Source: Macrostomum lignano (Eukaryota). Taken from it: DNA of 64,000 nucleotides. Under the pieces are notes generated by a model, which was not told where the DNA came from, did no database searches, and worked only from the letters and a program-made list of their open reading frames with translations. The translations under genes were made by a program, and so were the position numbers. The stretch spans positions 321,966-385,965 of the forward strand of contig NIVC01001101.1 in assembly GCA_002269645.1 (NCBI GenBank), in the 5' to 3' direction. Below are positions 21,871 to 44,141 of this stretch, piece by piece (the stretch's first letter is position 1; the number at the start of each line of letters is the position of its first letter).

Positions 21871-22134
21871 GTTTGACCATAGACAACACTGTGATGTGTG
21901 TTAGTTTGACTATAGACAACACTGTGATGTGTTTCTTAGTTTGACCATAGACAACATTGTGATGTGTGTCTTAGTTTGACCATAGACAACATTGTGATGT
22001 GTGTCTTAGTTTGATCATAGACAACATTGTGATGAGTGTCTTAGTTTGACCATAGACAACATTTTGATGAATGCTGAATTCTTCTAAGAAAGAAGGAAGA
22101 AAGAAATTAAAAGCCACTTGTGTGATTTCAAGCA

Positions 22135-24548: not shown

Positions 24549-25030
24549 AGTAGTAGGGCGAATTATGATACTGCCGCACTAGCACTGGCGAGATAGGCGG
24601 CAATGCAAATGTACAGGGAAAAATACACTGCGGAGATATGAGCCCTATCTCTGTGCATTGGGGACGGCTAAGCACTGCAGAGATATGAGCCCTATCTCTG
24701 TGCATTGGGGACGGCTAAGCACTGCAGAGATATGAGCCCTATCTCTGTGCATTGGGGACGGCTAAGCACTGCAGAGATATGAGCTCTATCTCTGTGCATT
24801 GGGGACGGCTAAGCACTGCAGAGATATGAGCTCTATCTCTGTGCATTGGGGACGGCTAAGCACTGCAGAGATATGAGCTCTATCTCTGTGCATTGGGGAC
24901 GGCTAAGCACTGCAGAGATATGAGCTCTATCTCTGTGCATTGGGGACGGCTAAGCACTGCAGAGATATGAGCTCTATCTCTGTGCATTGGGGACGGCTAA
25001 GCACTGCAGAGATATGAGCTCTATCTCTGC
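24549..25030 (+). repeat. Left TIR: 83-bp unique end plus 8 full and one partial 47-bp units
   Basis: Unit AGAGATATGAGC(C/T)CTATCTCTGTGCATTGGGGACGGCTAAGCACTGC from 24632. Confidence 0.93.
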
Positions 25031-25277
25031 TTAACACTGGAGTGATAGGAGGAGAGGCGGCCTATCTCTTTACACTGGAGATGGTTAACACTGCAGAGAT
25101 AGGAGGAGAGGCGGCCTATCTCTTTGCATTGGGGGTGGTTAACACTGCAGAGATAGGATGGAGTGGGTTAGCTTAGCTGAATGAATGTTAATCTATGTAA
25201 TTGGAAATAATGTTTGCGAAAGAGCCAATCACAGAGCCCGGAGTGGGATGGGTGGTTTGGGGTGGTTCGGTCGAGGG

Positions 25278-25286
25278 TATATAAGC
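25278..25286 (+). promoter_or_regulatory. TATA box TATATAAGC upstream of the PC4-like gene, with CCAAT at ~25225
   Basis: About 110 bp before the ATG at 25390; the same 9-mer faces inward at the other end (40601-40609). Confidence 0.55.
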
Positions 25287-25389
25287 CCCGAAATTGACAA
25301 GAAAGAATTCTCAATTTTTCAAATCCAAAATTTCATCCGAACTTTTCCTCAGCTTTTAACTTTTGTGAGTTTTCAATTGCGAAAGGAAA

Positions 25390-26157
25390 ATGGACATCTG
25401 TGAAGGCTATAAAACACAAGTCCAGGAGTTTGAAGGACAAAAATTTATCGCTATTCGCAAGTTTTACCGACACGGCAGCACGGCAAGTCTGAAGCCAGGC
25501 GTCCCAGGATTCAACCTGAATGTTCACCAATGGAAGAAATTGAAGGAGGTGAAACGCTCACTTGTGATTTCTGCACGCAACAACGAGCCCAAGGTCGTGA
25601 AACTCGGCTTCGATAAGTTTGTGGAAGTCAAAGGCGGCATCATTTGGCTCAAACGGCTGCCGGAAGATTGCTGCGAGGAGTTTTTGAGACGAAACGCCGT
25701 ACCACTGACTCCGCCGCTGTGGCAGAAGCTCTGGAAAATCGCCTCCTGGATCGACGGTCAGCTGGTGGCTCCCTTGAGGAACTCAATGCAGTACGAGCTG
25801 GAGTCTGATGAGGAAGAGGAGGAAGAGGACAAGAAGCTCAAGTTGGAGGCTGACCAGGACACGAAGCCCATAATGGAGACTGATGAGGGCGGAGAGCATG
25901 CTGATGACGAGGACGTTAGCTCGCCCACAAGGCCGCGCATTGTGACTGAGCCAATCACATCCACACCGATACCTTTGGTTGATTCTGATGCTGGACTGCT
26001 TCCGCAGCGGGACACCAACCTTGAGGAAGATCCGGTGTGGTATCAGTTCAGGGCGCATGCAGCGGCTTCGACGGTGAGCAGCAGGAAGCGAAAGCTGCCA
26101 TTTCAACTTCGTCGGCAGGACGCGATGAGGCTGCCCAATGTTCGCTTTGATAACTGA
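25390..26157 (+). CDS. PC4/Sub1-like protein with a probable second degenerate PC4 repeat and an acidic tail
   Basis: VQEFEGQKFIAIRKFY..KPGVPGFNLNVHQWKKLKE aligns by eye with PC4 VRDFKGKVLIDIREYW..KPGRKGISLNPEQWSQLKE; second repeat ends AVPLTPPLWQKLWKIASWID. Confidence 0.8.
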   Translation: MDICEGYKTQVQEFEGQKFIAIRKFYRHGSTASLKPGVPGFNLNVHQWKKLKEVKRSLVISARNNEPKVVKLGFDKFVEVKGGIIWLKRLPEDCCEEFLRRNAVPLTPPLWQKLWKIASWIDGQLVAPLRNSMQYELESDEEEEEEDKKLKLEADQDTKPIMETDEGGEHADDEDVSSPTRPRIVTEPITSTPIPLVDSDAGLLPQRDTNLEEDPVWYQFRAHAAASTVSSRKRKLPFQLRRQDAMRLPNVRFDN

Positions 26158-26483
26158 ACAGCTAGAATGCTTTGAATGCATTGGACTAACTAAATTACTT
26201 TTAGCTTGCACATGATTATCCAGCCTATATCTGACGGCACTATGCTGTTTTTTATCTCTGCTATTTCTGAAATGCTGGTGTGCGAGTGTTTTAGTGTTCG
26301 TTTTTATGGATTGTTTGCTTTCGGAAAATACACCGACTGTTACGATGTTAGAGGTTTCAATCTGACAGTAATAAATTAATTTGCCACTCGTTTCTCTATC
26401 ATTTAATTGGAATATAAATTTCTACTTAAGAAAAAATACTGTACAGCTAGAGCAGGTGGATAGGCACGTATCTTGATAAACCC

Positions 26484-27553
26484 ATGATGGAGAAAATTTA
26501 TTTGAAACCTGAGCAACCGGCTAGTTTTTCTTGTGCCTCAAAGTTGCTGCATGAAGTGAGGCAAAGAGGTGATCGAATATCTGCAAAGAGCATTGAGCAG
26601 TGGCTCAGCGAGCAGCCAGTGCACACTCTGCACAAGCCAGCTAGGAGGCGATATCCAAGGGCCCCAATCATAGTGCGCGCAATCGATGATCAGTGGGAAC
26701 TTGACTTAGTGGAAATGATTCCATTTGCAAAGCATAATAAAGGCTACAAATATATTCTCACATGCATTGACGTGCTCTCAAAATGTGCTTGGGCCAAGGC
26801 ACTGAAAAATAAATCTGCTGCAGAAGTGAAGTCAGCATTCGAGAGCATACTGAGAAGTTCAAAGCGACAGCCGCGCACAGTTCGCACAGATCAGGGGAAG
26901 GAATTTATCAACTCCACTTTCCGTCAATACTGCATTGACAGAGGGATTCTGGCTTTCCCAACTAACAGCGAGCAGAAGGCGGCTGTCATTGAGCGATGGA
27001 ATCGGACTCTGAAAAGTAGAATGTGGCGCTACTTCACCTACAAGAGCACACTGCACTGGCTTGATGTGCTGCCTAAGCTGGTAAAATCCTACAACAATAC
27101 CTACCACAGAAGCATCAAAATGGCACCCACTAGTGTCTGCAAAGAGAATGAATCTGAAGTGTGGATGAACCTGTACGACGGAAAAGCAGTCGAGACTCTA
27201 GAAAAATTAAGGAAGCCTAAATTCGCTGAAAACCAGTCAGTGAGAATTTCCAATGCTCCACGGCTATTCAAAAAGGGATACAAAGCGAGCTGGAGTGAGG
27301 AAGTGTACACCGTGGTGAGCAGAGCCCCAAAACATTATCCCTACATGTACAAGATTAAAGACATGCGGGGGCAAGAGATTCGAGGACTCTTCCATGAGCA
27401 CGAGCTGCAGGCTGTCCCGGACTCACAGCGGCTGTATGTGATTGAGAAGATCCTGAAAACGGAGAAGCGGAAGGGAAAAATTCGCTATCTGGTGAAATGA
27501 GCGGGCTACGACTCGACTGGCTGGGTGGATGAAAAAGACTTAAGAAAGGTTTA
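26484..27553 (+). CDS. int: Polinton DDE integrase with C-terminal chromodomain (TGA at 27498-27500 inside the chromodomain)
   Basis: YLKPEQPASF start, QWELDL (D), RTDQGKEF (D), VIERWNRTLK (E), KPKF..VRIS, WSEEVY, VIEKIL..YLVK*AGY..WV. Confidence 0.93.
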
Positions 27554-27591
27554 GCTTTGGCACATCCCTCATCTTGAAGTTTATCATTATA

Positions 27592-28396
27592 ATGCGAACT
27601 ATTTTGATTAACAGTGAGCATGCTGAAGGTACTCCTAGTGACTTTAATTTTTACCTGCCTTCACCTATTTACTTGGATCGAAATGTGGACTATGAGGCAG
27701 GTCTGGCTGAAATCCATCTGCCTGCTGCATGGTTCAATGTTGACGAGCCTTACTGCTTCACTGTCTCAGATGGAAGAGAGCATGAGGCCCTGGTTCTTCA
27801 ACCCGGACGCTTTGCTAGAGTGGAGGAGCTGGTGGAGCGCCTGAATGAGCTGCTGGCCAACTCTGATTCGCTGTTCTTTGATGCAATGAGTGACAGGGAG
27901 TCTGAGATGGAGGCTGATGAGTCCGGCCTGATGGGGCGTAGTGGCAACAGGGAATTCGGTATGAAGTTCGGACAACTCACGAACTGTGGTGCACAACAAC
28001 ACTGCGAGAGCAGAGCTGTTTCTTCCATCTAGTAAAATTCTGCATTGGCTGGGATTTGGAAACCAGGCTGTGAAAATCCAGCCAGGGAGCCGCGTGTCCG
28101 AGCATTGCATTGGCTGCCCGCGCACCAGCTTAATCAATGTGCACTGCAGTATCGTTGAGTCAACTAATTGCAACTGGAGCTCCTTGTTGAGAACAGTTGG
28201 AATGAAAGCCGGCATTGAATGGGGCAACTATCAAACAAAAATATTTAAGAAAACAATATTCTTCCCGATTCAACGAATCAGTCTTCTTCACAGCATTCGA
28301 GTTCAGCTGCGTGACATCTATGGTTGCCCACTGATTGCACAGACTCACAGCCCTGTTCTGCTTACAGTTCAACTTCAGGAGAAACGCATTCAATGA
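27592..28396 (+). CDS. Minor capsid protein (penton, PX), one frameshift near 27975-28010
   Basis: N-terminal TPSDFNFYLPSPIYL..YEAGLAEIHLP; C-terminal INVHCSIVE..LLRTV..IRVQLRDIYG..LTVQLQ, typical of Maverick single jelly-roll proteins. Confidence 0.8.
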
Positions 28397-28743
28397 ACTA
28401 CCAGCAGCTAATCCAGCAATATTCGGGGGTGAGGACAGGACACGAAAAGCCTGCACTCTATGGCTGTGGGAGCTTCCCAGGGATCATGACATACCAGCCT
28501 CCGCCAGCGGCTATATCATCATCATCAGCCTCGACGCTTAGCAACGTCAGGCGCAAAAGAAATACTGAAGCAAGTCCGAAACGATTGAAGAAAAAGAAGG
28601 GCACCCGAAAGGCAACTGGTGGAAATCGCAGTAAGAGGTCGAGCAAGGCTAGTGGGAAAAAGCTTAAGAATAGGAAGACGAAAGCAAAGAAGAATAGAGC
28701 AGGCGGAGGAAAGCGAAAGCAAAAGTCAGCAAGAAAACTGTGA
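28393..28743 (+). CDS. Small Lys/Arg-rich putative core (DNA-condensing) protein
   Basis: ATG overlaps the penton stop (ATGA). Very basic C-terminal half; LYGCG fits the adenain (M/L/I)XGX-G consensus; lies between the two capsid genes. Confidence 0.55.
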   Translation: MNYQQLIQQYSGVRTGHEKPALYGCGSFPGIMTYQPPPAAISSSSASTLSNVRRKRNTEASPKRLKKKKGTRKATGGNRSKRSSKASGKKLKNRKTKAKKNRAGGGKRKQKSARKL

Positions 28744-28771
28744 AACGCGTGCTCGACTCTCTGTCATAGAC

Positions 28772-30050
28772 ATGGCTTACGGATTCAATCCCAGACTTGA
28801 TTTATTTAAGACGCCCGTTCTACAAACCTGCATTGAAAAAGCTACTTATGTTGATATTCACCCAGTTAATTCCATTGTTGCAAACTCTCCCATTGAATTT
28901 GACTGCCACCAATCTGCCGATGAATACACAGATCTGCTGAATTCTTTTCTTTATATTCGCTGCCGCCTTGTGAGACTGGATGGGGGTTTGCTGAGGGAGG
29001 ATGTTCGAGATGGAGATGGCATCATCACCGAGCGCAGAGACAGTGACGTGCACCCAGAAAATTTTGTTCTGTCTACAGCCTTCTCAGATGTAATTGTGAG
29101 CATTAACCAGCGAGTGGTGTCTGGTGGAGACCAGCTCTATCCCTACCATGCGTACTTCAAAGCACTAATGAGCTCATCCGATGCCCAGCAACTAAAACTT
29201 TACCCTGCTGGCTTCCTGGAGCCGAACTCGGCAGCTGAAGAGCACACGGAGAGCCACAGGGAATCCCAATGGATGGAGTATGCGGGGCCGCTCTTCAGCG
29301 ATGTTTTCCAGTGCCCAGTGTTTCTGCTAAGCAATCTGCACCTGCACATCAAACTGGTCCCAGCGATGGGGCCTTTGCCATCAGAACCCGAATGCAAACA
29401 ACGCGGCATACCGAATGGAAATCTCTCACAGCATTCTGCATCTTCGCCGAGTCAAAGTGATGCCCCACATCAGCCTGGCCCATGAGCAGGGGCTGACAAA
29501 CCAAAATGCACTGTATCCCATCGAGCGAACTGAAATGCAGAACTTCATCCTACCCCAGGGCATTCAGTCAAAAACATTGAAGGATTCACTCATGGAAAAT
29601 TGCCGAAGTTTATCATGCTGGCCTTCGTGAGCCACCGAGCATTCAACGGTCATCATCACGCGAGCCCGTTCCAGTTCCAGAGCTTCAACCTTAGCCGATT
29701 GGCTCTAAAGAAAGGTGGGGAAACCGTGTGCCACGGCGCCTTCACACCTGAAAACAATTCCTTTGTAAGAGAATACTTGCACTACCTGAAAAGCTGTCAA
29801 TCTGCAAGCCACACAACTCGGTTCCGTGGATCCCCTACCAGCTCTTCTCCAACAAAAACACGGTGTTTGCATTCGATCTCACACCAGAGGGAGCGGCTCT
29901 GTGGTACGGACAGAAGGAGGGCAACCTGCGGCTGGAGATTCGCTTCCAACAGGCTCTGAATGAAGCGGTGTCCTGATTGCTATGTGCCTGTATGACTCAC
30001 TGATTGAGGTCACCAAGCACCGAGAGCTTTTGCTGGACTATTCATCTTAA
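28772..30050 (+). CDS. Major capsid protein (PY, double jelly-roll), split by ~5 single-base frameshifts
   Basis: LDLFKTP..IEK..YVDIHPV..SPIEF..YTDLLNSFLYIRCRLV; later LRRVKV..AH..ALYPIERTE, KLPKFIMLAFV, VFAFDLTP, GNLRLEIRF, ending LIEVTKHRELLLDYSS*. Confidence 0.9.
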
Positions 30051-30055
30051 TTGAC

Positions 30056-30568
30056 ATGGATGCAATTCAACTACTTAATCTCGCCAGAAAATTTTTGCCT
30101 TACCAAAAATTTCTCATAGTTACTTTACATTTGCGCTATAAAAATTCTCTGCCCTTGAATGTAAAAAGAAAATTTAGATCATCAATTTCCTTTGAAAACA
30201 AGTTTGTTTTTGTCCTACTTCAGCACAATGGCTCATTTGGTCACTGGGTGGTGTGCTATGTTGGGCAAGGAAATCGCATTGAGTTGTTCAACTCCCTCGG
30301 CTGGGAACCTGAAATTTTATCTTTGGTTTATAATTTGTTTCGAGAGATTAAAACAACTGGCTTTTGGCTCCGAAGCAATATAAACAGAGTTCAATGTGCT
30401 AACTCTAATAAATGCGGAGTGTTTTGCATCTATTTTGCTTATCAAAAGTTTCTGTTCAATCGGTCATTTGAGGGGATTTTGAAGCATTTGCATGCTAATG
30501 AAAAAAATCATTTGAATGATAGAATCTTACAGAGGTTTGAAGCCAACTTAAGAAAAAGATGTCCGTGA
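30056..30568 (+). CDS. Adenain-like cysteine maturation protease
   Basis: GHWVVCY (His), LFNSLG (Asp-site equivalent), VQ..NSNKCGVFC (Gln/Cys) in the expected order. Confidence 0.85.
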   Translation: MDAIQLLNLARKFLPYQKFLIVTLHLRYKNSLPLNVKRKFRSSISFENKFVFVLLQHNGSFGHWVVCYVGQGNRIELFNSLGWEPEILSLVYNLFREIKTTGFWLRSNINRVQCANSNKCGVFCIYFAYQKFLFNRSFEGILKHLHANEKNHLNDRILQRFEANLRKRCP

Positions 30569-31240
30569 TTTCTAATATTTATGCATTAAACATGGGAGAA
30601 AAGCAAGTTTGCTACGATATCCGCCTCAGGCAGGGAAGCTGCATGATTGTCTGCGGGCCCACCAATGCAGGAAAAACAACCTTTGTCAAACACCTGATCC
30701 AGTACAGAGACGTCATGTTTGATGTGAAGCCTGGCAGAGTTCTGTGGTACTATGGGATCTCACAGGCAGGCCATGCAGAACTGAGCAGCCTAGGTGTGCA
30801 GCTGCGCCAGGGATTTCCCACCAACATCGAGGCAGCACTTAGGCCCAATGACCTGGTTGTTTTCGATGACTTAATAGAGGAAACTTCAAACTCTGCTTCA
30901 ATGCGAAATTTTTTCACAGGAATCGCACATCACTTGCCGTGCTTTTTGGTGATGCTGACTCAGAATATATTTTTCAAGGGAAAAGAGTCGCGAACAATGA
31001 GCTTGAATGTAATGTATTTAGCTATCTTGAAAAACCCCAGAGACCAGCTGCAGATTGCAGCACTGGGCAGGCAGTGCTTTACAGAGAAGCCCGGCTTTCT
31101 GCTGTCAGTGTTCAAGCACGTGACCGCGCAGGGCAGGGGAGCTACCTGTTCCTGATTTCACCCATCAACTCCCGATGAGCTGCGAGTGCGGGCCAGAATT
31201 TTGCCCAACCAGCGACCCCATCTTGTATTTGAAAGTGAAA
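30559..31240 (+). CDS. A32/FtsK-HerA-type packaging ATPase; C-terminus frameshifted, end approximate
   Basis: Walker A GPTNAGKTT, Walker B LVVFDDL, HH..MLTQNIF, SRTMSLN, KNPRDQLQI; the tail YLFL..HPSTPDELRVR is recovered after frameshifts near 31135-31158. Confidence 0.9.
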
Positions 31241-31277
31241 GTGAAGCTTGTTTTTATCAGCTATTGTTTTCATCGCT

Positions 31278-31615
31278 ATGGAAGTGCTTGATTCACATGC
31301 AAGTTTTTTGCGGTTCTTGCGTCACCTAAATATACCGTGCGCTTCAAGCGGCTGTTGATAAAAAATTGTCCAAAAGAAGTGCGTTATTTTCTTGTCGAGG
31401 CCTGCCATAATCTCTTACAAAACAATCTATCGTTTTCGCTCGATGAAAAAGCTGTTCTTGCAAAGTCAAAAGAGATAATTCGAAAAATTACTCACAAAAG
31501 AAGAAAGACAGACTTGTTGAAGGCTGGCTTCATCAAAATACTCCCGATTCTGCTTAAGCTGGTAAAGAAGAAGAAGCAAAATGAACAAATTTTCAGAAAT
31601 GGTTCTGATTCCTAA
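31278..31615 (+). CDS. Conserved small basic Maverick protein (PW/PZ class), frameshift near 31337
   Basis: EACHNLLQNNLSFS..KEIIRKI..LLKAGFIKILPILL resembles the small Maverick protein pattern ECALNVLKGNVPL..QKGGFLPALL; naming uncertain. Confidence 0.55.
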
Positions 31616-32201
31616 AGCAGAGTATGAGATGTTGATGCAGAATTTGAAGCCAAATGAGACTACCACTGAAGCTGACTTGAAGCAGGCTCAGAAGAAATGC
31701 GATGACATCTTGTATGCCGAGGATTGTCCAGAAGATGTGAAAACCGCCATGTACCAAAGTGCAATGCAAAGTTTGCTGGCCAAGCGCAAGCACGCTGGAA
31801 AAGAAGGAGCACGCAATACTGAAGCCAAGTTGATGAAAACAGAGACACCCCAGATGAACACCTGGGAAGAGAAGATCAGCAAGTCGGTGCCACAGAAATT
31901 CAAAACCAGGGCTCGCAGTCTGTGGACGATCCTGTCCACCAATCCAGAGCTGATTCGAGTTTGTGAAAACGGGGAGGTGGAAATCGCAGGCACGTCAATC
32001 CCTTCCTCAAACATACTGGACTTGATTCAGCACGCAGTGAGGGATTCGCCATGTGAGCGTGAACCAGTTGGGTGGAACGAGTTCATCGATTTTCTGCAGC
32101 AGAAAAAGCTTAATGTTCCGCTTTCCGCTATTGGTAAATCAGTTAAGAAGAAAATGGCAACCAGCAGAGGGGTGAACTGGAGAAAGAACAGGAGAGTCTA
32201 G
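31581..32201 (+). CDS. Conserved Maverick protein of unknown function (PZ/PW class)
   Basis: MVLIPK start, EDVKTAMYQ, ENGEVEIAG..IPSSNILDLI..PVGWNEF..LNVP..IG motif string seen in Mavericks; naming uncertain. Confidence 0.65.
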   Translation: MNKFSEMVLIPKAEYEMLMQNLKPNETTTEADLKQAQKKCDDILYAEDCPEDVKTAMYQSAMQSLLAKRKHAGKEGARNTEAKLMKTETPQMNTWEEKISKSVPQKFKTRARSLWTILSTNPELIRVCENGEVEIAGTSIPSSNILDLIQHAVRDSPCEREPVGWNEFIDFLQQKKLNVPLSAIGKSVKKKMATSRGVNWRKNRRV

Positions 32202-32252
32202 TCAAGGGGTACGGGAGCAACACAGCCTGGCTGAAACTGCCTGCCAGAAAAG

Positions 32253-32260
32253 TATATAAG
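32253..32260 (+). promoter_or_regulatory. TATA box TATATAAG upstream of the exonuclease-like and TBP-like genes
   Basis: 49 bp before the ATG at 32302, in the short gap after the structural gene block. Confidence 0.5.
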
Positions 32261-32301
32261 AAGGTGGACTGACTCCGAAATTTTCGAAGGAAAGCTGCAT
32301 C

Positions 32302-32800
32302 ATGAACTACATTGACTTCCAAGGATTCCGTGCAACAGCACAAGCAAAAAATTTGTTGTGAAGGAGTTGGCAGTTGTTCAAATCAGAGCGGGGAGCTACC
32401 GCATTGCTCACCATGTGTACGCACCTCCGTATCCATGGGAGAGAGTCTCACCTGACATGCGAGTTTACTACAGACAGCTATCTAAGAGTCTGCACCAGTT
32501 TAAGTGGAATGATGGAACCCGTCCGTACATGGAACTGGCGGAAGACATTCTGAGCATTGCCAGTGGTCCGATCTGGTCAAATGGGGAAAGGAAGTCGATT
32601 TTCTGACTGAGCTGCTTGGAAGACAGGTTTATAACCTAGAAGATTTGGGAGCACCCTCGACTGAAGATTCAGATACTGGCTGTGCAGTGAGAAATTCGTT
32701 GCTGCACTACAGTTGGCTTAAGCCAAAGTTCTGCATCAACTTAAGAAGCGAGCAGTGTCCGTGGCACACGAGCAGTAAAGTTGGCAGAAGCAGATTTGGT
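32302..32800 (+). CDS. Putative DnaQ/DEDD-like exonuclease-fold protein, two frameshifts, end approximate
   Basis: MNYIDFQGF..FVVKELAVV..HHVYAPPY..LHQFKWNDG..(K)..FL..VYNLEDLGAP..C reconstructed across frames; fold assignment is inference. Confidence 0.5.
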
Positions 32801-32819
32801 GAAGAAGTTGACGATCGAA

Positions 32820-33392
32820 ATGAGCCCACCAGCTACAGCCCTAAGAGTGACCAATCTGGTTGGCGGAGTAGATCTGAGACTGGATGGTGGCAGGGGCGCT
32901 CAGCTGCCTCTACGGGAACTGGCTCTCAGCATGGCTCATGTGATCTACCGGCCCGTCTGGCCCCGGGTGCTCATCAAGCGGATGCGAAGTCCCAGAGTGA
33001 CTCTGCTACTCTACCCTACTGGGCAACTGAGCATCTGCGGTGCCAAGACCCACGCAGACGCCAAAAGGGCTGCCCGTCGCTTCGTGGCTATGCTGCATCG
33101 GAGAGTGCCGGCTCAACTGCTGCCTCATCAAACAATTTGTGTTCGAATTAAAACTATTACTGCTCATGGACAGCTCCCAGTTCATTCCGCACTTTCCTTA
33201 TTAATGTTAAAATCAATTATCCCAAACGCCGAATATGAACCAGAATCCTTTTCTGCTTTAATTTTCAATTTAAACTTTTGTAAATGTCTGCTTTTTCACA
33301 GCGGCTCTTTTGTTCTCAGTAGAGCTCGGTCCTTGAATCAGTTGCATACCGATAGCATGCGTCTACTCAATGTAGTTCTTTCCATTGAATAA
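32820..33392 (+). CDS. Divergent TATA-binding protein (TBP)-like protein, core only (190 aa from ATG)
   Basis: Both TBP pseudo-repeats are present. [58 protein letters not shown] matches [80 protein letters not shown] matches SYEPELFPGLIY..LIFVSGKIVL. Confidence 0.85.
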   Translation: [190 protein letters not shown]

Positions 33393-33973
33393 AAATAAAA
33401 GTCAAGTCAAGCAATTTGCCGCAAATATTTCAATGATTAGTGAAAAGTGAATAAAAGGATAAACTTAGTATTCTTTACATTCATTTTCCCAGGCAGACAG
33501 CTATGGAACACTTCAAAAACGTATTTAGCCCATCACCAAAAGTATCGCAAAACGCATATCAAATCCGAAAGTAAACAATACTACCATCGTTATAACAAAC
33601 GATGTGCACCGAGAGAAGAGAAATAGAAAAGTGATAGAGAAAATATGATTAAAACGCTGATTGAATTTACAGGAACAATTTATGTCAGATAAAAACCAAA
33701 AACACATTTTAAACAAGTAGTACACAAAGCAAACAAAAATGAATTAATATTGTATGAGCGCACTTGCCACAGCTTTATAAAAAGTAAAACTTAAATTGAT
33801 ATCAATATTTCACGCCGCAAAAACAAATTGACAGCTAAATCTAGCGCAATTAGCCAAGCATACAAATTTGTAAAAGTTACTACATGCAAGTCACTACATT
33901 TAAAACAGAATTTGGCAATTTAAACAACTCTAAAAGCAAGAAAAAGTACTAAACAGTCTGTTAAACACCCGCA

Positions 33974-36900
33974 CTAGACCAGTCGGATGCGCTTCAGCTG
34001 ATCGTGGGATGCGGGCGTCAGCGCATAGTGTCCGTAGGGCAGGCTTCGATTACTGCTAAGCCACACTCGCTTATCCTCCCACACCGATAGGCTTCTTTTC
34101 TCCATGACCGACGTGAAGATTTCGTGTTTCTTGGAAACAATCGCTGTCATGGCAACCATCTGCTCTTGCTTGGACTCGAACGCGTCGACATAGTTCGCAT
34201 GCGAAATTTGCTGTCTTACTACTGACTGCTTCACGCCTTTGGCAGTTTTCTTGATCTTTGCACTCGAATTCTCGGCAGGGAGAAACGAATAAAGTTTTGG
34301 ACGCAAAAGAATCCACTCCTGGTAAATTCCACCAGCAGATTCATCTTTAACGCAGCCCAAGCTTTCCTTTTAACTCTTCAGAGAAATGCGGATGGTCTCG
34401 AGAAATAGTTGGATGTGTCAAGTATTTTTCCTCTCTAAGCTTCGGGATTACCGTCCGATGTTAAATCACGATTCTTGAAAGCTAGAAAAATGAGTCAGTA
34501 TCACCTCCGCAAAAGCATCATGTCTCTGGAACCGTCTGAATGACAGAACAGCGGTCGGAGCCTGTCATATAGTGGCTGTACATGGCCATCTTAGAGAGAT
34601 CGAGAACTGCCTGGCCAACGAAAATGGCCTTGTCAGCGTGACTTTATCTTTTTTGAGCTGAAAAATGCTCACGACTCATTGATAATCGAGAATGCGGCAC
34701 AGTTTGGTCGAGAGGCGCAAGTTTCTGCTTGAGTCTGGTTAGTGCAAATTCGAACATCGCATCTTTTTCGAACGTTCTCCATAGTTTTTCCAAAGAGAGA
34801 ATTGTTTTTCAATTTGTAAAAATCCTTAGCAAACTCGGAAGTTGCCAAAGCTCTTTTTCATTGTTGCTGGCAATGTACGGCGCGAAAATATTTTCCTGCT
34901 TGAACGAAATCATTTTTTGACGCACTTGATCCGCATTCCGTGTTGCAGGTAAAATCTTAAAACGGTGCTGTGAACTACGTAAGAAATCCTTGTCGGTACA
35001 GGTGAGTAGAAGCTTCTCCGTTGCTTGAAACTTAGCTTCAGCATTGCCAGTTCGCTGTTCAGCAATCTCTTTCCATAGTTCGGCCATGTACGGCGAGAAT
35101 TGATCTGGCTGTGGTTTTGATTTTTCAGGTGCAAACGGTAACTCCTGAGTCGAATCGTGAATCTCAGCTGGGTATTCTAGATCGAGTTGAACAAGGTAGG
35201 CGATCTCGGCTTCTGGATTGAGTGACAGAAACCGATTGGAGTCCCAGAACTGGATTTTCCTGTTCCGGTACCCACCTGAATTCCCTGCATGGAAGCGGAA
35301 GGCGAAGGGCAAAGCCATACAAGTTGTTCATATCGATCGGCATGAGGCTTACACTCTCTTGCTGATCATCATAACTGGCAAGCTAGGATTATTACTTTGA
35401 CGCAAATGCACATTAATGAAGGACATGCCTCCTCGTATTCGCTTCTCAACAGATGATACATGTCAGCATCAGTCAGCTGCTCTAGAACCACTCCAGTCGA
35501 CTTTAGAGCTGAGTCGTAAGACAAAACCAGGAGTAGTAAAGTAGTGTACCGGATCCAATCCGTCTCCTTTCAGACTGGCCTGTCGGAATGTCTCAAAAAT
35601 GGTCAGCCAGCTGCCTTACATCCATTTCAAGATAGCGAGCATATAATCCTTCAAACTTTTGCATTGAAATGCCGCCCATGCCGCTCTTGCTCTATTGTAG
35701 TCGTCGTCGGAAATTCCCCTATCGGAAAGTCGATTAAAAAAAGCATCTTTAGGTGGCAAAACCGACTGCTCGAGAATCTCAAATCCTGTGAGGTAATCAT
35801 ATGGGAAAATCCCTTTTTTTCGAAGTAGCTCTCTTGAAAGATGTGGTCTTGACTCAAGCATTTGCATTGTCAGCTTGCATTCAGCTTCGGGAAGATTAGC
35901 AAACAAATTGGACAAACTTCCCTTCAAAAAGCAGAGCGAGTCGATGAACTGAATTGTAAACATGATTGGCACAACTTTTCCGTTCTTTACGTAACTTGCA
36001 ACAGGGAATTCCGCCCTTAGTGACAAGTATCGCTCGGATGATTGCGGAACAACACTAAGTTTCCAATTTTTCATGCTCCCAAGCGCAGTGGAAAGTAGAA
36101 GATGAAGGTCGTAGCCGCCTAAGTTGTGAAAAACCAGGGGCAGAAACCGGCGTCGGAGCTGTGCTCGCAGGTTGCATTCTTGACATGCTGCACCTTTGTA
36201 CTGTCCATTTAAATGATCGTGGTCAAAATGTTTATCTGTAGAACTTTTAAAGTTCTTCTTGCAGTAGTGACATACCTCAGCAGAATTGAAATCATCCATG
36301 ACGGTCGCGGATGATCGGTCAGCCGGCTGGTGGCTATGCTTCTGGTTCCAGTGAAATATATCCTGAGCCAGGCTTTCAAGAGATTTGAGAAAACCAAGGA
36401 TACACTCATCAGGGTCCGCATTGCAAAAGACCTTGTACATGTCTCCTTCTGGCCTAAGCGGAGGTCCTGTCATGCCTTCACGAGGCACTGCAAGAAAAGC
36501 TGCTGCACATGGTTCATGCTTTGAGATCAGGTTAGCAGGGTCTGTGTTCGCTCGCAAAATGGCTTCCAGGTCGGCATAGGCAACGAATGGTGGACTGACA
36601 GTGTTTTGACAGTTTCGGAACTTTATTTCATTCTGTCCTGGAACTGGAAGCGTTTCTTTGACAGGATTTTCTGCAGTAATGCTGCATTCGTTCCTGTGCT
36701 CTTGAAGCCTCTCGTTGCTATAAAATGATGTTAAACATTTCGTGCACCACTTCCTCATGGCGGGACCATTACGACTGTTCATTAACCTGTCAAAATTAGT
36801 AATTGCACACCAGTGCTCCGATCCGTAGCTGTCTTTAACTAGCAAAAGCATGAGGTGTCTTCGGTCATCTGACTCATGCTTGCGGCGACGGAGAAGAGTC

Positions 36901-38289
36901 ACACTGCCCTGCTGCCAAGAGAACGCAGAAATGCAAATTCCTGGATTGTTAGACTCGACGCGATCGATATCAGCGACACTCACTGGCATGGAGATTTCTG
37001 CAAAGTCCAGCTCACGCAACCATTCATCGTAAGAGGATATTCTGTTGGGCGATTTCTGAACTTTCGGATCGGCGCTGTGCAGTGCAGCGAGACAGGCGTA
37101 CAGGAAACAGTCTTTGCCTGTGCTCGGTGGATTGATAACAGCCTTTTTGTTCTTCAAACTGGCAGGAAGATTGAATCTAACGGCTCTGCCCTGGCGAAAT
37201 CGAATTGGATTGTACCTGGCAAGGTTGATGTCTAGAAAATTAATTTGTTTAATTGTCCAGCCACTGCCGTTCGTATTAATCATACTACAGATCCTCTCCA
37301 ACTCCTGCTCCTGCTCAATCAACCAGTTGTTTAAACGGCCTGCTTCACCACCTAGGTCTAGGGCCTGCATTTTACAGCTTATCCATCTGTCCTCTTCGGC
37401 AAGCATCTCCCCATCTCTTATTCGGACCATTCGAATATTCGCCTTTAGCTGAACTTTGTAATGATGTCTTGAAATTCTTTGCTGAACTGCCTCAATAATT
37501 TTGTCTCCAGCTTGGACAAAAAATTCTGACGGAAGCGTGTCTGGGTGACTCGATCTGAGCCTCAGTATTTCCAGTGATTGATCATAGGCTTGGGCAACTC
37601 TGCTGAAGCTGACTGTTGAACCTGGTTTGTGGTTTTAGGATAATATTTTTGTTTTTTGCTGCCTATAGTTTCAAATATCAAAGATACTAAACTAAACGTC
37701 TGTACCCAAGCATACATGTACAACCCTACCGGTATAAAGTCTTTTATCTCCCCTTCTCCCATTCTTTGGACTAAAATTTTAGACTGCATAATATACATCG
37801 CATTGATAAGAAAATTTTTAAGTAAGTTGAAAAGGATAAATAAAGGCACTTACCTTGGTGTGCATCAGTCACCGACTCGCTGTTGGCTGCTGACTCGCTG
37901 CTGGCTGCTGACTCGCTGCTGGCTGCTGACTCGCTGCTGGCTGCTGACTCGCTGCTGGCTGCTGACTCGCTGCTGGCTGCTGACTCGCTGCTGGCTGCTG
38001 ACTCGCTGCTGGCTGCCGACTCGCTGCTGGCTGCCGACTCGCTGCTGGCTGCCGACTCGCTGCTGGCTGCTGACTCGCTGCTGACGTCATGGTCCACCCA
38101 AGGGTGGTCATACTCGATCCACGAGTGGTCATCCTCCATCCACGAGTGGCCATTCTCCATCCACGAGTGGTCATTCTCCATCCATGAGTGGTCATTCTCC
38201 ATCCATGAGTGGTCATTCTCCATCCATGAGTGGTCATTCTCCATCCATGAGTGGTCATTCTCCTGCTCCATCCAGGAGTGCTCAACCAT
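33974..38289 (-). CDS. polB: Protein-primed family B DNA polymerase; probable exon 1 38289-37854, intron 37853-37622, exon 2 37621-33974; several frameshifts between ~34360 and 35620
   Basis: C2H2 finger, exonuclease YADLE / FHNLGGYD / FIDS, EndoVII-like CHYC..DHDH..CQECN insert, KKGIFPYDY, motif A IDMNNLYG (~35320), motif B YKLKNNSLFGKT (~34790), motif C GDTDS (~34500), C-terminal KG(V)K..EDKR..SLPYGH. Confidence 0.92.
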
Positions 38290-39176
38290 AGAAAAGGCAA
38301 GCAGTTAAAAGCTGACAGTGTTTACTGGCTGCAACTGAGTGTCATAAGCAACTGGGAGTGAATATTGGAAATCTTTTTCGTAAGTCTTTATTGCTGCAAT
38401 ACTGGTACAATATCCACACTTACAAGCTAGTAGATGCTGGTTATATTTTTTTGGTTCTCCCTTAAGCTAGCTCTCTGCATGCATATTCTATTGATCCCTA
38501 TTCGTAAAAGTTCGTTTCTATTTGCCTCCTACGCAGACTCAATCGGTAAAAAATGCAAAATGAAGCCAATAGTTAATTAACAAACCAATCACCGAGTGGA
38601 AAAATGCTGACATTATATATATATATATATTTTTTTAAAAATTATCGAATTCACATGGTGCAATCATAGTCAATAAACAATGCATGGAACAATGAATTAC
38701 AAATACAGACGAGAGTTTAGAAGCAGAAATATAGCTGAAAAGTTCAATAATTAAAGAATGAGGAAACACCGCGTCAAAGCAGTAGAAAGAAAATTATACC
38801 TAATCAATCGCACCAAGCATACGAAACCATCACCAATTTATTGAAAGTATGTTATGTTGATTTTAATTTGTTAAATTCAACTGTATAATGTTTCACCTAC
38901 TTTTCAAATAATTTTTTTTACCTCGGATACCAAAAAAATATTGGTTGCCACTACGAGCTACGAGCTTTTTTTAAAACTAATTTGGAAATGAAAACTGAAA
39001 ACTTATAAGCAAGATTCCTAGAAGCGAATACAGAGTTATGAGATGATCAAATCATTAATTAATGTACCTACTTCAACTTTAAAAAGCTAGTTGAAATAAA
39101 GTTTTAGCAATAATTGCAATAAATGGGTAGATTTCTCACTCCACACAGAAAGCAAAAAAGTACAAAAATTGCTTAG

Positions 39177-40499
39177 TCACAGCGGCACAATTCTAATACG
39201 ATTTTCGAAAATCGTTACCTCGTACCCAGCCCCGCCGACAGGAGGCAGAAAGAAGGCAACTCCAGCTGGCACGGGTGGAGTTTCGGATTGAGAAGCTGGA
39301 ATTGTAGAGGCTGCAGCTGGGGCGGCTGGAGCAGCTGGGGCAGCCAGAGCAGCTGGGGCGGCTGGAGCAGCTGGGGCGGCCAGAGCAGCTGGGGCGGCCA
39401 GAGCAGCTGGGGCGGCCAGAGCAGCTGGGGCGGCTGGAGCAGCTGGGGCGGCCAGAGCAGCTGGGGCGGACAGAGCAGCTGGGGCGGCCAGAGCAGCTGG
39501 GGCGGCCAGAGCAGCTGGGGCGGCTGGAGCAGCTGGGGCGGCCGGAGCAGCTGGGGCGGACAGAGCAGCTGGGGCGGCCAGAGCAGCTGGGGCGGCCAGA
39601 GCAGCTGGGGCGGCCAGAGCAGCTGGGGCGGCTGGAGCTGCAGGTGGCACAATTGCATTATGCGACTCATTGTCGCTGCCCTCCTCTTCTAGGATTTCCA
39701 TTTCGTGGTCGTCTTCAATTAGATGAAGTTGTTTTCCAGCAATCACCGGAACCGAAGAGACAGGTTGCTGCTGCTGCTGACCAGCGTTGAATTCCCTGAG
39801 GAACTGATCCAGGACATCTTCCTCTATGAAGTTTATGACAGCAGCAGCCTCGACTCCAGCAGCCTCGACTCCAGCAGCCTCGACTCCAGCAGCCTCGACT
39901 CCAGCAGCCTCGACTCCAGCAGCCTCGACTCCAGCAGCCTCGACTCCAGCAGCCTCGACTCCAGCAGCCTCGACTCCAGCAGCCTCGACTCCAGCAGCCT
40001 CGACTCCAGCAGCCTCGACTCCAGCAGCCTCGACTCCAGCAGCCTCGACTCCAGCAGCCTCGACTCCAGCAGCCTCGACTCCAGCAGACAGCTCAACTTC
40101 AAATTCTGCAGCTGCTGAAGACCCGCTTGGCCTCATCCTCTTCAATGTAGAGTCAATTACTTGACTCAAGTGAGCTGATAGCAGACTCCTGCTGGCTCCC
40201 TTTTTCTGCTGGATCTTCTTTTCTCTCTCGTTGCTCTTTTTGATGGCGCGGATTACTTTCCAGCGGTTACTTTCTTGCTTTTTCTTGTCATCGCTGACGA
40301 TCCTGTGTCCTCGATGATATGCTGGAATTTTTCCCTCCTGCAGAGCTTCGACGGTGCCGCACTGGTCGCATGCCAACCAGCATGAGACCAGACAGTTCTC
40401 ATTCTCGTGGTGTCTTGGGGACACGCCTCCAAGCAGGCACACTTCGCAGCTTATACAGACCTCATAGAGGTCTCTATGACAACTTTTAAAAGTTTTCAT
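39177..40499 (-). CDS. 440-aa accessory protein: Cys/His-rich N-terminus, (EAAGV)~16 and (APAA[L/P]A)n repeats
   Basis: ATG at 40499 about 100 bp downstream of an inward TATA box; unique N- and C-termini in one open frame across 15-bp and 18-bp repeats. Confidence 0.6.
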   Translation of the reverse strand: MKTFKSCHRDLYEVCISCEVCLLGGVSPRHHENENCLVSCWLACDQCGTVEALQEGKIPAYHRGHRIVSDDKKKQESNRWKVIRAIKKSNEREKKIQQKKGASRSLLSAHLSQVIDSTLKRMRPSGSSAAAEFEVELSAGVEAAGVEAAGVEAAGVEAAGVEAAGVEAAGVEAAGVEAAGVEAAGVEAAGVEAAGVEAAGVEAAGVEAAGVEAAGVEAAAVINFIEEDVLDQFLREFNAGQQQQQPVSSVPVIAGKQLHLIEDDHEMEILEEEGSDNESHNAIVPPAAPAAPAALAAPAALAAPAALAAPAALSAPAAPAAPAAPAAPAALAAPAALAAPAALSAPAALAAPAAPAAPAALAAPAALAAPAALAAPAAPAAPAALAAPAAPAAPAAASTIPASQSETPPVPAGVAFFLPPVGGAGYEVTIFENRIRIVPL

Positions 40500-40600
40500 T
40501 TTGAAAGAGAAAGAGTTGTTTTTTAGAAGTAGTAAGGTTTTTAAAAATCCTTTTATACAATTTTGTTTTTGTCTATTTGTTTATTTGTACTTGCGTGGCT

Positions 40601-40609
40601 GCTTATATA
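40601..40609 (-). promoter_or_regulatory. TATA box TATATAAGC upstream of the 440-aa gene
   Basis: Reverse complement of GCTTATATA; identical to 25278-25286. Confidence 0.55.
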
Positions 40610-40957
40610 GTAATTTGTACATGCATGCCCTCTCCTTATCATATCGTATATGAACATCCAGCCATGCTCAGGTAATAATTACTTTACCGTTATAGAGGCC
40701 ACCGGCTGTAATTAGTGTATCCCCCCGTCCCCTTATCCAGGTAAGCAACACCAGCCGTCCTCTGTGCAGTTGTAAAACTTTATAACCTTACCCTAACACA
40801 GAGCACAGAGATTGGCCACCCCTCTTATCTCTGCAATGTTTAGCCGTTCCCAATGCACAGAGATAGGATCCTCTCCGCAGTGTATTTTTCCTATATCCTT
40901 TTTGCCGCCTATCTCGCCAGTGCTAGTGCGGCAGTATCATGAATCGCCTCTATCTCC

Positions 40958-41322
40958 GCAGTGCTTAGCCGTCCCCAATGCACAGAGATAGAGCTCATAT
41001 CTCTGCAGTGCCTAGCCGTCCCCAATGCACAGAGATAGAGCTCATATCTCTGCAGTGCTTAGCCGTCCCCAATGCACAGAGATAGAGCTCATATCTCTGC
41101 AGTGCTTAGCCGTCCCCAATGCACAGAGATAGAGCTCATATCTCTGCAGTGCTTAGCCGTCCCCAATGCACAGAGATAGGGCTCATATCTCTGCAGTGCT
41201 TAGCCGTCCCCAATGCACAGAGATAGGGCTCATATCTCCGCAGTGTATTTTTCCCTGTACATTTGCATTGCCGCCTATCTCGCCAGTGCTAGTGCGGCAG
41301 TATCATAATTCGCCCTACTACT
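40958..41322 (-). repeat. Right TIR: 6 x 47-bp units plus 83-bp unique end
   Basis: Reverse complement of the left TIR; a degenerate extra subterminal copy lies at ~40850-40957. Confidence 0.93.
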
Positions 41323-44141
41323 GTGATGAAAGGCAGTTTCTGAGAAAAATACAAAATTATAAAGAAACAGTAATGTGCATACACATTCGATTGTCTCGCT
41401 CTAACAGACAGCGACGGTTCGCCGACAGGCAATGCCATATCATACGACTCACTAGTAATGTCAGCTGTGTCGATAGAATGTCATTCGTAGCATAGTCGTC
41501 ATCCGGAAACAACTGGCTTTCGTTGATCGGCTGCTGGTAGACCAGAGACGAAGTGAATGGCGTGCCATCTGATGCGCCGGCTCGCGCGGCGATGGCTTTG
41601 TCGCGCTGTTGCGTCCACGAAATGCCGACTGCGCTGGAAACTCTTATCTGATTGTCTTCGCAATCCCGTGTGCCAACGGTAATATCCAACCGACTTGGCG
41701 TTGCAGATGTCGCTAGTGCGATGGACGATCGTCCAACGGCGTCATCAACTGCGTCGTTCGAAGCAGTGACACCCTCCGAAAACAAGTGGCTGACAAGATT
41801 AAGATTACCGACACTCATGGCATGGTCTGTAACGACTACTCTCTTGACTTGTTCGAGGATTTATTAACCCTCGGCAAGATTACCGACACTACTCTCTTGA
41901 CTTGATCTGCTCACGGCTGGTGCAACTGCAAACGCCTTCGACAAACCAATGGAGCATGCACCGAAAAAAATCGGATTAGCGTCTATCTTAATAGGAAAGC
42001 TGCTTTGCATACTGGGCCAGTTGGAGCTATTTGGAACCATGCCACAGTCTCCGTCTAGACACCTAGCTGTGCCAAACAATATGGCTGGCTGACTCATGCT
42101 TCTAAGCGTCAAAGCCCGTTGACACACTAAGCAGCTGTGATAGACTACATGCCAGTGGTAGTCAAACCTCTCGCACACAATCAGCGCGCAACAATTTTTC
42201 AACAGCCTCACATTACGGACGCTACAGTGCCTCCGAAAAGCAGATCAACTCACCTTGCAATTTCGAGGCTTTATTACCCCTCGGATTAGATTGACCCGCG
42301 TAGTCAAATAAAAGTGACTACTCTTAGCAGCTGCCTTGAGCCACAACAGACGCGAGGATTGATAACCCCTCGTAGGTCAGCATTTTCAGTCAACTGCTCA
42401 ACTCTGATTCATCGGTTGAAGCGGGGTTCCATTATCCCTCGCTGGTGGCCATACACCAACACTGCAGACGCTTTAGACAACCCAATGGAGCATGCTCTAG
42501 CAAGAGCTAGAATAACGTCTGTCGTAAAAAAGAAACAGAAAGAAACAGAAAGAAAGAGACTACATGCCATTGGGAGTCAAACCTCTCCGGCACAATAAGA
42601 ATGCAATAGTTATGGCACTTTATGGCACTTTAACATATGACATTACCATATGGCACTTTATCCCTCGCAGGTCAGCATAGCAGCTGCCTTGAGCCACAAC
42701 AGACGGAAGACCAGTCTTATCCGTAACTTCATCGAGATTCGGGTCAATGGGAGCTGATCCCTGTGGATTTGCCAGATCACTTGGTCTAGATCACAGAGGA
42801 ATTCCGACTGAACCCCCAAAATCTCATCCAGAACATTTTCAATTGGAAAACCTGAAATTTGGGTCTACAATCAGAACTTAGAAGTGTTCCGGGTGAAAAA
42901 ATTTTGGAAAATGCAGCCGGAACAGCTTTCCTTTTTCCCGAACTTTTGCAGGATCACATTTTCCGGAAAAAAGGGACTATTCCGGGCCGAAAATGCTGAT
43001 CGGGGCCTTCACTTGGAAATCAATTAATAAATCGGGCCCGGATCACGAAATTCTGGGTGAAAAGTACAACGGGTTCTTACAGACCGGATAACACAAAGGC
43101 ATCTTGATTGAAATCTTTTTCCATTATCTGCTTTGCAAACCAGATTCGCATCATGTTATCCGGCAAATTTCAGATTCACACAGGTTTCTTACAAACCAGA
43201 TAACACACAGTTATCTTTATTTAAATCTTGTACTGTTATCTGTTTTTCAAACAAAATTCGCACCATTTTATCCTGTAAAATTCCGATTCAAACAAGATTC
43301 GATCAACCAAGATAACAGAGAATTATCTGGTGGCGAATCTTGTACTGTTATCTGTTTTTCAAACAAGATTCGCGCCATGTTATCCTGTAAAATTCAGATA
43401 ACTCACCAGATAACAGTCAAACAAGAAAACAAAAAATTATCTGGTGGTGAATCTTGTCATGTAATCTGATTTCTAAGCAAGATTCGGGCCACTTTATCTG
43501 GTGAAATTCAGATAACTCACCAGATAACAGGCAAACCAGATAACACTAAAATTACCTGGTGACGAATCTGATGGTTTCACCAGTTTCGCACCTCAAACAA
43601 GGAAATCGGTAGTGAATCTGACAAGATTCGAAAATTATCTTGTGGTGTTATCTGTTTTATTTATCAGAAGGAATCCACCACTAAGTATCACCCTAATCCC
43701 TCGTTAGTCCACCAGCAATGTTTGCGCAATGCACACTCGCTGCTAGGCCAGACCCGCTCCAACCCCCACCCACACGTAGCAGTAAATTTTGAGATTAGAA
43801 ATGATAAATAAGCGAATAAGCAGTGAAATAGAAATTATGTGACAGCGGAAGCTGCAGATGAGAAATAAAATAATCAAACAGTCCGTGGCAAGGCCGTGAA
43901 AGAAGCTTTCACTCATTTATTAATTATGACACAGAGCCGTCATCGGACACGAACTAAAAACGTCACCGACAAATATTTTATTGTCTGTTGAATATTTCAA
44001 CTTGTTTTTTTCCTAGAAATTTATTATTATTATTTGTCACCTGTAAAACGGAATTTCACGAAATGGAACATAAAATGGAGCGGCAAAAGTCGCGAGTTCG
44101 TCATGCCGTACCGATACAGCGAGTTGCTAGTTTTGCCTCCG

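Follow-up and report, generated by a model that had tools for sequence, protein, structure and literature searches.

A divergent TATA-binding protein gene carried by Maverick elements of Macrostomum lignano, and the family-specific TATA-like boxes upstream of their genes

The window, a 64,000-nt stretch of the Macrostomum lignano genome, contains a Maverick of 16.8 kb that spans 24549-41322 and has the ends AGTAGT ... ACTACT. Long terminal inverted repeats (TIRs) with AG...CT ends are a hallmark of Mavericks, or Polintons. The first-pass annotation had placed an uninterrupted 190-aa ORF with both halves of a TATA-binding protein (TBP) inside an element bounded by TIRs and a target site duplication (TSD), and both boundaries were recovered, with GTGATG at each end. 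The element belongs to family A of the Maverick families considered here, and its features are as follows.

24543-24548, + strand: left TSD, GTGATG, 6 bp, matching the right flank
24549-24920, + strand: left TIR, beginning AGTAGT; the 372-nt arms are 99% complementary
25275-25285, + strand: GGGTATATAAG box preceding the PC4-like gene; the 11-mer also lies 5' of left-end genes of family C
25390-26157, + strand: ORF with an N-terminal PC4 domain (Pfam PF02229, E 1.6e-7, above cut-off)
26426-26432, + strand: TTAAGAA box, integrase ATG 58 nt downstream
26484-27500, + strand: retroviral-like integrase (Pfam rve, E 2.8e-13)
27540-27546, + strand: TTAAGAA box, putative minor capsid ATG 52 nt downstream
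27592-28396, + strand: putative minor capsid gene, split over two frames here, with no database match
28245-28251, + strand: TTAAGAA box, basic ORF 148 nt downstream
28393-28743, + strand: small basic ORF, putatively a core protein
28664-28670, + strand: TTAAGAA box, putative major capsid ATG 108 nt downstream (102-104 nt in L062 and L061)
28772-30045 (end approximate), + strand: putative major capsid gene, in several frames here; a single frame of 426 aa in L062
30056-30568, + strand: adenovirus-type cysteine protease (Peptidase_C5, E 9.6e-5, 22.6 bits against a cut-off of 21.3)
30548-30554, + strand: TTAAGAA box, likely ATPase ATG 44 nt downstream
30592-31155, + strand: P-loop packaging-type ATPase, open part, with Walker A; Pfam matches sub-threshold only, including Pox_A32 (E 0.06)
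31292-32201, + strand: two conserved ORFs, termed small and X
32256-32262, + strand: ATAAGAA box within TATATAAGAAG, Maelstrom-like ORF 46 nt downstream
32302-33151, + strand: DEDD/Maelstrom-like ORF, frameshifted within 32.3-32.6 kb in this copy
32741-32747, + strand: TTAAGAA box, TBP ATG 79 nt downstream; seen in 12 of the 12 family-A representatives printed
32820-33392, + strand: TBP-fold gene, 190 aa, intronless, with AATAAA at the stop and after it
33974-37634, - strand: putative protein-primed DNA polymerase B region, in several frames here
39177-40499, - strand: right-end ORF, 440 aa, repeat-rich
40602-40609, - strand: TATATAAG box preceding the right-end ORF
40951-41322, - strand: right TIR, finishing ACTACT
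41323-41328, + strand: right TSD, GTGATG

The element has the TIRs, 6-bp TSD, rve integrase and C5 protease (the last just above its cut-off) of a Maverick and, by way of sister copies, polymerase B. The left TIR contains 47-bp tandem units that continue to about 25029, and the chromodomain of the integrase was found in the L062 copy. We take the reverse-strand region at 33974-37634 to be a putative polymerase B from its sequence motifs; an endonuclease VII domain was the sole domain to score in the window's polymerase pieces, and seven sister copies had a PF03175 match above cut-off at a distance of 1-3 kb from their TBP gene (91 of 974 candidates scored). The minor and major capsid labels are presumptive, following the Polinton gene order, and the candidate ORFs, which have the expected size and place, gave no match in Pfam, PHROGs or PDB sequences. 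The Maelstrom call for the ORF upstream of the TBP gene comes from an Atlas row (0.88) and is a lead only. Viral RNA polymerase and TFIIB had no Pfam match among the 16 element ORFs scanned.

Short-read contigs from several runs differed from the window by small indels across 25050-37700, so some of the frameshifts seen here may be assembly errors or private to this copy. Over the same interval, contigs of four runs gave flat cover across genes and gaps with no joints, which informs on expression neither way. The repeat-rich ORFs on the reverse strand (37771-38304 and 39177-40499) contain heptad, hexad and pentad repeats and are open in several frames. Elsewhere in the window, a WSC-domain ORF occurs in two copies 11.7 kb apart (5922-6677 and 17602-18357) within a larger tandem duplication of host DNA, an intronless calcineurin-like phosphoesterase ORF lies at 44142-45287 on the reverse strand (Pfam E 1.2e-36), and inverted repeats of 119 nt, 1.4 kb apart at 20247-21885, perhaps mark a small DNA transposon.

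No stop interrupts the 190 codons of the ORF at 32820-33392, which has two separate stretches matching PF00352 (E 2e-24; 85.6 bits, with the cut-off at 22.9). A protein 99% identical to it is recorded from Macrostomum lignano. TBPs accounted for 35 of the 36 matches in a search of PDB sequences at E<=1. An AlphaFold2 model from a 76-sequence alignment had a mean pLDDT of 95.1 and a pTM of 0.86 and superposed on solved TBPs at TM 0.82-0.84 (E about 1e-14), a fit biased towards the TBP fold because the alignment contains many true TBPs. Profile and predicted structure together confirmed the ORF as a two-repeat TBP, as had been proposed. The protein shares the two-repeat saddle of cellular TBP (TM 0.83), is 29% identical to the host TBP and 28% identical to a second host paralogue, which from its residue pattern is probably TRF2, and differs from cellular TBP in having no N-terminal extension and in being multicopy in Mavericks.

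A search of the genome gave at least 152 matches to the TBP gene (150 of 232 candidates scored), a number that haplotypes may inflate up to threefold because the host TBP (L031/L033) and the second paralogue (L037/L038), which occupy separate loci, appear three times each. Element DNA was present at every locus examined; together with the nearby PF03175 matches in sister copies, this set the homologues beside Maverick genes and not only at ordinary host loci. The 97 best rows covered at least 165 residues at 74-100% identity, and 95 of these had no stop. All 30 of the closest loci aligned to the element around the TBP gene, 29 over the whole 2.3-3.6 kb at about 99%, and their copies comprised three distinct coding sequences with a mean difference of 1.2 nt. 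The SRAR sequence that the first-pass annotation had read as a trait of the protein is not a family trait, since it occurred in six of these 30 copies and the other 24, like all subfamily representatives, keep the glycine (SGAR).

Two further families carry TBP-fold genes of greater divergence. The TBP of family B (L061) is 38% identical to that of family A and lies in the same gene order, with the PC4 gene on the opposite strand (one locus in full). Family C, reached via its capsid-like gene, contains a TBP-fold ORF at about 20% identity, and this ruled it out as a TBP-less control. The family-C ORF fell just below the Pfam cut-off in one of the two copies tested (E 1.2e-4), had profile E values of 7e-9 and 3.5e-7, and gave a model with a pLDDT of 81.7 and a TM of about 0.7 to TBPs; its own search returned 91 matches among 93 candidates. 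The family-C frame (L090 9080-9613; L091 8909-9499) has no starting ATG and overlaps the upstream ORF; splicing or frameshifting may yield it as part of a fusion protein, and most of helix 2 seems to be missing from its first repeat.

Several side observations concern these families. In two copies of family C (L090 5955-10000 with L088 1-10000; L091 6534-10000 with L089 1-6325) there was no polymerase ORF between the inverted repeats, and the family may be a non-autonomous, capsid-coding one; one copy held an inserted Fic-domain gene and a THAP9/P-element transposase. At least three further capsid-like families, 30-33% identical to family C, occur in the genome (L096), as do many more polymerase matches. 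A PC4-domain protein, which has a Pol II co-activator/single-strand DNA binding fold, is encoded in family A (25390-26157) and in family B (L061 6080-6757, - strand), in each case behind a TATATAA-type box. The family-B PC4 gene is followed by a reverse-transcriptase-like ORF (L061 7251-9149, - strand; label assigned by eye), probably an inserted retroelement.

The element TBP is under purifying selection. Pairwise dN/dS among nine family-A representatives was 0.06-0.45 where computable. Codon-model omega for the nine subfamily representatives was 0.16-0.18 over residues 7-111 and 0.05-0.08 over residues 112-186, the latter value being rough because synonymous sites are near saturation, and omega was 0.10 between two subfamilies of family C. 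Family A thus lies at 0.05-0.18, not near 1, the value that the first-pass annotation had named as counting against its proposal. The upstream Maelstrom-like ORF overlaps the TBP codons in the -1 frame, over the first 107-111 codons in 12 of 12 family-A representatives (32819-33151 in the window) and over 109-129 in family B. The -1 run is stop-free beyond the expectation from synonymous shuffles (0.001-0.046). The tail of that frame is not conserved as protein (dN/dS 1.0-4.4), and on these values it was rejected as a selected product.

The subfamilies are also mosaic in structure. Three loci (L007, L047 and L051) are mostly 94-99% alike over 1.4 kb upstream and through about codon 110, and 55-75% alike thereafter. 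A recombination junction lies between the TBP repeats, at about 33150-33175 (L047, L051 and L062), such that the left module and first repeat are common and the second repeat and downstream DNA differ. We rejected dual-coding constraint as the source of the low divergence of the first repeat, which is mostly recombination, because identity holds at 95-99% over the 1.4 kb upstream and falls away near codon 112-118.

These results bear on the proposal that the gene is a captured passenger, a functionless copy of a host TBP held open by amplification in the recent past or by the overlapping frame. Dual coding does extend over the first 110 codons, and the intactness of the 30 closest copies says little, given how few nucleotides separate them. 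The selection results already contradict such a passenger, which we regard as extremely improbable: the lower omega falls in the non-overlapping half, where synonymous sites are near saturation, the unconstrained frame is the -1 frame, and the protein, at 29% identity to host TBP, forms a separate clade and has been kept in three families. The TBP gene is element-borne, under selection and found in three Maverick families.

In a phylogeny with TBP and TRF2, a comparison the first-pass annotation had asked for, families A and B and the proteins P0003-P0005, P0010, P0016, P0110 and P0136 fell on one side of a branch (97/92) and host TBP and TRF2 fell apart from them, although branches were long, placement was unsure and the tree gives no origin for the TBP gene. 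The tree held 59 of 155 candidate rows, hand-picked as 13 element, element-like or host sequences, 10 near-canonical and 36 divergent ones, with family C left out. These relatives, which lie on contigs of only 0.8-3 kb, place this type of TBP beyond the present assembly too. Scans of IMG/VR with alignments A1 and A5 found no relatives, and a scan with A4 found two loci that resemble large DNA viruses and carry near-canonical TBPs. A metagenome scan returned 12 loci, and the seven examined (L074-L080) held archaeal, eukaryotic or other cellular TBPs, with none of the seven in a Maverick. A profile search with alignment A6 found 135 proteins, and among the 120 matches listed no protein bore a Maverick name.

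Ten divergent TBPs of 170-193 aa (P0110, P0136, P0068, P0091, P0022, P0035, P0093, P0118, P0014 and P0054) have some changes in common with the Maverick TBPs (Pro99, Thr159 or His208), and such short proteins may be the TBPs of other elements. The gene models P0007, P0008 and P0009 fuse an element TBP to adjoining element ORFs or to a long host-like protein and are probably annotation artefacts.

When the 130 nt 5' of each start were scanned, [AT]TAAGAA recurred. The sense strand of the gene module held eight copies in the window's element, eight in L062 and six in L061, and the antisense strand of each module held none; dinucleotide shuffles gave a mean of 0.7-1.5 copies and reached the observed counts in 0 of 300, and TAAGAA was the top-ranked enriched 6-mer common to all three. 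As a word the motif is not rare: the two strands of the AT-richer host flanks contain 34 copies over 47 kb. A copy lay 25-155 nt 5' of 7 of 9 starts in the window, 7 of 10 in L062 and 4 of 6 in L061 (18 of 25 in families A and B) against a random-window background of 0.12-0.14 (binomial 1e-5, 8e-5 and 3e-3, respectively), where the motif and the 25-155 nt interval were chosen after inspection, starts were assigned by the analyst, and the samples count as two, not three, because the window and L062 are related. A codon-shuffle control, of 1000 shuffles, was clear for L062 (5) and weak for L061 (85), L088 (184) and L089 (84). The boxes fall in differing reading frames. The putative major capsid gene has its box at 102-108 nt in the window, L062 and L061, though families B and A do not align as DNA. 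An upstream box was looked for and not found at the protease start, and ORF X had none.

Family C has a different motif, ATAAATA, with 10 and 10 copies against 0.7-0.8 expected, located 5' of 14 of 18 starts after one wrongly set start was dropped and with one box serving two starts; some of these boxes overlap AATAAA. The two motifs were exclusive, with [AT]TAAGAA at 0 of 18 family-C starts and ATAAATA at 0 of 25 A/B starts (Fisher 3.5e-4 and 7e-5, each family being represented by one locus set). Written as 8-mers, the boxes make up a series of TATAAATA in C, mostly TATAAGAA in B and mostly CTTAAGAA in A; the family-A box has three positions that differ from the TATA consensus, and the A/B box leaves position 1 free. 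A family-specific TATA-like box stands ahead of most of the integrase, packaging and putative capsid genes, and these boxes lend indirect support to the altered-specificity initiation factor that the first-pass annotation had put forward. The first-pass annotation had proposed TATATAAG as the site of the element TBP. The data favour [AT]TAAGAA, and TATATAAG, which lies upstream of both terminal genes of the window's element, is likely a host-TBP site. The GGGTATATAAG box is a candidate early (host TBP) promoter and the TATATAAG box near the right end a candidate early promoter. In family B, a canonical TATAAAAG stands 53 nt 5' of the TBP gene, and TATATAAGAAG, ahead of the Maelstrom-like ORF of family A, is readable as a canonical TATA box too.

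The placement of the boxes, along with the conserved stirrup, also argues against a role in non-transcriptional DNA bending, such as during integration, the initiation of replication or the packaging of the genome, since the boxes precede genes and are not at the termini. The TBP gene does sit between the morphogenesis module and the polymerase, and the family-C frame without an ATG may fuse the TBP to the upstream ORF, both of which speak for a bending role; even so, we judge such a role very unlikely.

Residues were compared in yeast numbering (host TBP position + 60). Families A and B keep N69, V71, T112, L114, G125, E186, P187, E188, F190, L193, F207 and G216, and cellular TBP is alike at N69, V71, T112, L114, E186, E188, F190 and F207. 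The changes common to A and B are F99P, A100R, F116Y, K120Q, V122S/T, T124C, Q158K, N159T, V161T/S and V208H, with the 98-100 stretch of family B aligned in this way in alignment A3 and differently in A6, and P191 is lost and is now S, T or N. Relative to cellular TBP the DNA face is thereby rebuilt (F99P, F116Y, V122S, T124C, N159T, V161T, V208H and loss of P191). The intercalating Phe positions 99, 116, 190 and 207 hold P, Y, F and F, and the equivalents of N69 and N159 and of T124 and T215 at the dyad are N, T, C and S, so neither set is the canonical one. The window's TBP has R98 changed to W, and R141 is A in family A, so that the convex basic face is partly changed. This residue table agrees with the first-pass reading that N69, E186/E188 and F190/F207 are kept, F99 is replaced (W/P), F116 becomes Y and N159 becomes T. 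TRF2/TBPL1 is likewise a TBP paralogue with an altered DNA face and the stirrup kept. It stands apart in the tree at 28% identity, and the host paralogue loses F116 and F190, whereas the element protein keeps F190 and F207.

The acidic stirrup of TBP has an established role in TFIIB binding. Family C keeps N69, F116, E186, E188 and F190 and has N159T, V161T and P191N in common with A/B, and E186, E188 and F190 are retained across all three Maverick families, including C at about 20% identity. Our mapping puts the acidic stirrup residues at E186 and E188; a preprint on the herpesvirus protein ORF24 gives the acidic TFIIB residues as E184 and E188 (10.1101/2025.08.25.672222). As the best-kept surface over three families, the stirrup could serve as a decoy in host shut-off, holding TFIIB (or Brf) off host promoters as TRF2 can, with the boxes unrelated. 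The loss of two to three intercalating Phe and of N159 fits such a decoy, as does an element that needs Pol II for only a dozen genes. We consider it distinctly unlikely, since N69, V71, T112, L114, F190 and F207 are invariant across A and B and the slower-evolving repeat at the protein level is the first; a decoy would also leave the family-specific boxes without a reason and would block the element's own genes.

The C-terminal TBP repeat reads the TATA box over its 5' half, and P191 is reported to permit only T at box position 1, with A100 as its counterpart (PMC1636458). The changes common to A and B include both of these residues. V122 reportedly lies opposite box position 6, according to work by Patikoglou and co-workers from 1999. 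On this residue and box pattern, the reading that we favour, if by a modest degree of confidence, is that the element-borne, core-only TBP is a late-promoter factor whose TFIIB stirrup is kept and whose DNA face is rebuilt. Host TBP would fire the TATATAAG promoters first. The element TBP would be made early, in family B from TATAAAAG and in family A perhaps from TATATAAGAAG ahead of the overlapping upstream gene, and would then bind the element box, where loss of P191 would free position 1 and Ser at 122 would give space for G at position 6. The kept stirrup would recruit TFIIB, driving the integrase, packaging and capsid genes, and the PC4 protein may act as a co-activator or single-strand binding protein. 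That the DNA-face changes are common to A and B despite only 38% identity supports this late factor. It is weakened by the position of the family-A TBP gene, which itself lies behind the box that its product would need to read, and the retention of only two of the four intercalating Phe, a third being Tyr, speaks against it.

The boxes may also be read by the host TBP, because wild-type TBP can accommodate G at positions 3 and 6 (PMC1636458) and, judging by their titles, some PDB entries show the wild-type protein on T(-30) and G(-26) variants. The element protein would then be a helper or anti-repressor: host TBP or TFIID would read weak TATA boxes, and the element TBP, binding DNA loosely or not at all, would boost the element's transcription, either by stabilising TFIIB or because it escapes or titrates regulators of TBP (TAF1, Mot1, NC2). 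The tolerated G at position 6 and the partly changed convex basic face (R141 as A in family A) are compatible with a helper of this kind. So is family C, in which the most divergent TBP-like protein accompanies a canonical box, the opposite of simple co-divergence. In a 7-kb part of a further family, D, TATAAG lies 5' of two or three genes and no frame resembling a TBP occurs over those 7 kb, so TATA-like boxes 5' of genes may be a general feature. We nonetheless think a helper unlikely, because the DNA-face changes are fixed and common to A and B, not variable, and because the family-A box has three departures from the TATA consensus.

The late-factor reading resembles a system described in herpesviruses, and TBP-plus-late-box logic is already known from much larger viruses. 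According to PMC7498053, KSHV ORF24, EBV BcRF1 and HCMV UL87 are beta/gamma-herpesvirus TBP mimics that act with TATT late promoters, so that a nuclear DNA virus that has no RNA polymerase of its own combines a TBP fold with a variant box 5' of structural genes. The mimics are large proteins that bind Pol II directly within a six-protein complex, and ORF24 has none of the acidic TFIIB residues and, in a model, clashes with TFIIB (10.1101/2025.08.25.672222). The Maverick protein, unlike these, consists of nothing more than a 190-aa core and retains the stirrup, and the A/B box is [AT]TAAGAA. By this comparison, we lean towards a Maverick TBP that works as the herpesvirus mimics do and yet is not a member of their group.

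Divergent TBPs are also encoded by Nucleocytoviricota (ASFV B263R, phycodnavirus, mimivirus), to which BFVD matches reached TM 0.5-0.73, a weaker structural match than to cellular TBP, and no sequence link was found. Most Nucleocytoviricota with a TBP carry their own RNA polymerase and TFIIB. TBP-like genes in large DNA viruses are described in PMC5825884. Mavericks and adintoviruses share with the present element TIRs, a 6-bp TSD, an rve integrase, pPolB and a protease, and the element has a putative packaging ATPase and putative capsid genes.

The novelty that the first-pass annotation had left open was borne out in part. A label 'TBP' for related viruses appears in the Fig. 5 legend of Starrett et al. 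2021 (PMC8502044), which in part reduces the novelty of a TBP-bearing Polinton; a bare TBP with a family-specific box in Mavericks was not found in the literature searched. In the part of that source available, the label is a single one, and there is no analysis of it, selection test or promoter box (PMC8502044). The first 4.0 million characters of its supplement gave no TBP match, and the remainder and the slides may bear on novelty. This legend was the sole relevant item on Maverick/Polinton TBPs in a literature search whose coverage ended short of subscription journals and Repbase. 'TBP' and 'TATA' are absent from the main text of PMC11161782 and 10.64898/2026.06.19.733378, PMC13134418 deals with host TBPs of tapeworms, and none of the Maverick/Polinton papers among the matches listed mentions Macrostomum.

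By what means the capsid and packaging genes of Mavericks are expressed is an open question, as is the existence of a regulated, virus-like cycle; in vertebrate Mavericks virions have not been seen, according to PMC8097293. If these elements do have a promoter factor of their own and a box to match it, this would be direct evidence for a late phase. More tentatively, and short of what we would call probable, animal Mavericks may have an early-to-late cascade run by a single 190-aa TBP that reads a family-specific box with host TFIIB, each family with its own TBP-box pair, and such a cascade may be widespread in Polintons. If so, the TBPs of these elements would be a series of altered-specificity variants provided by nature, and no smaller viral substitute for the core Pol II initiation factor would be known. 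TBP ranks with the most conserved proteins, and three element TBPs at 20-38% mutual identity, each with a different candidate box, would show its specificity shifting while the TFIIB contact stays.
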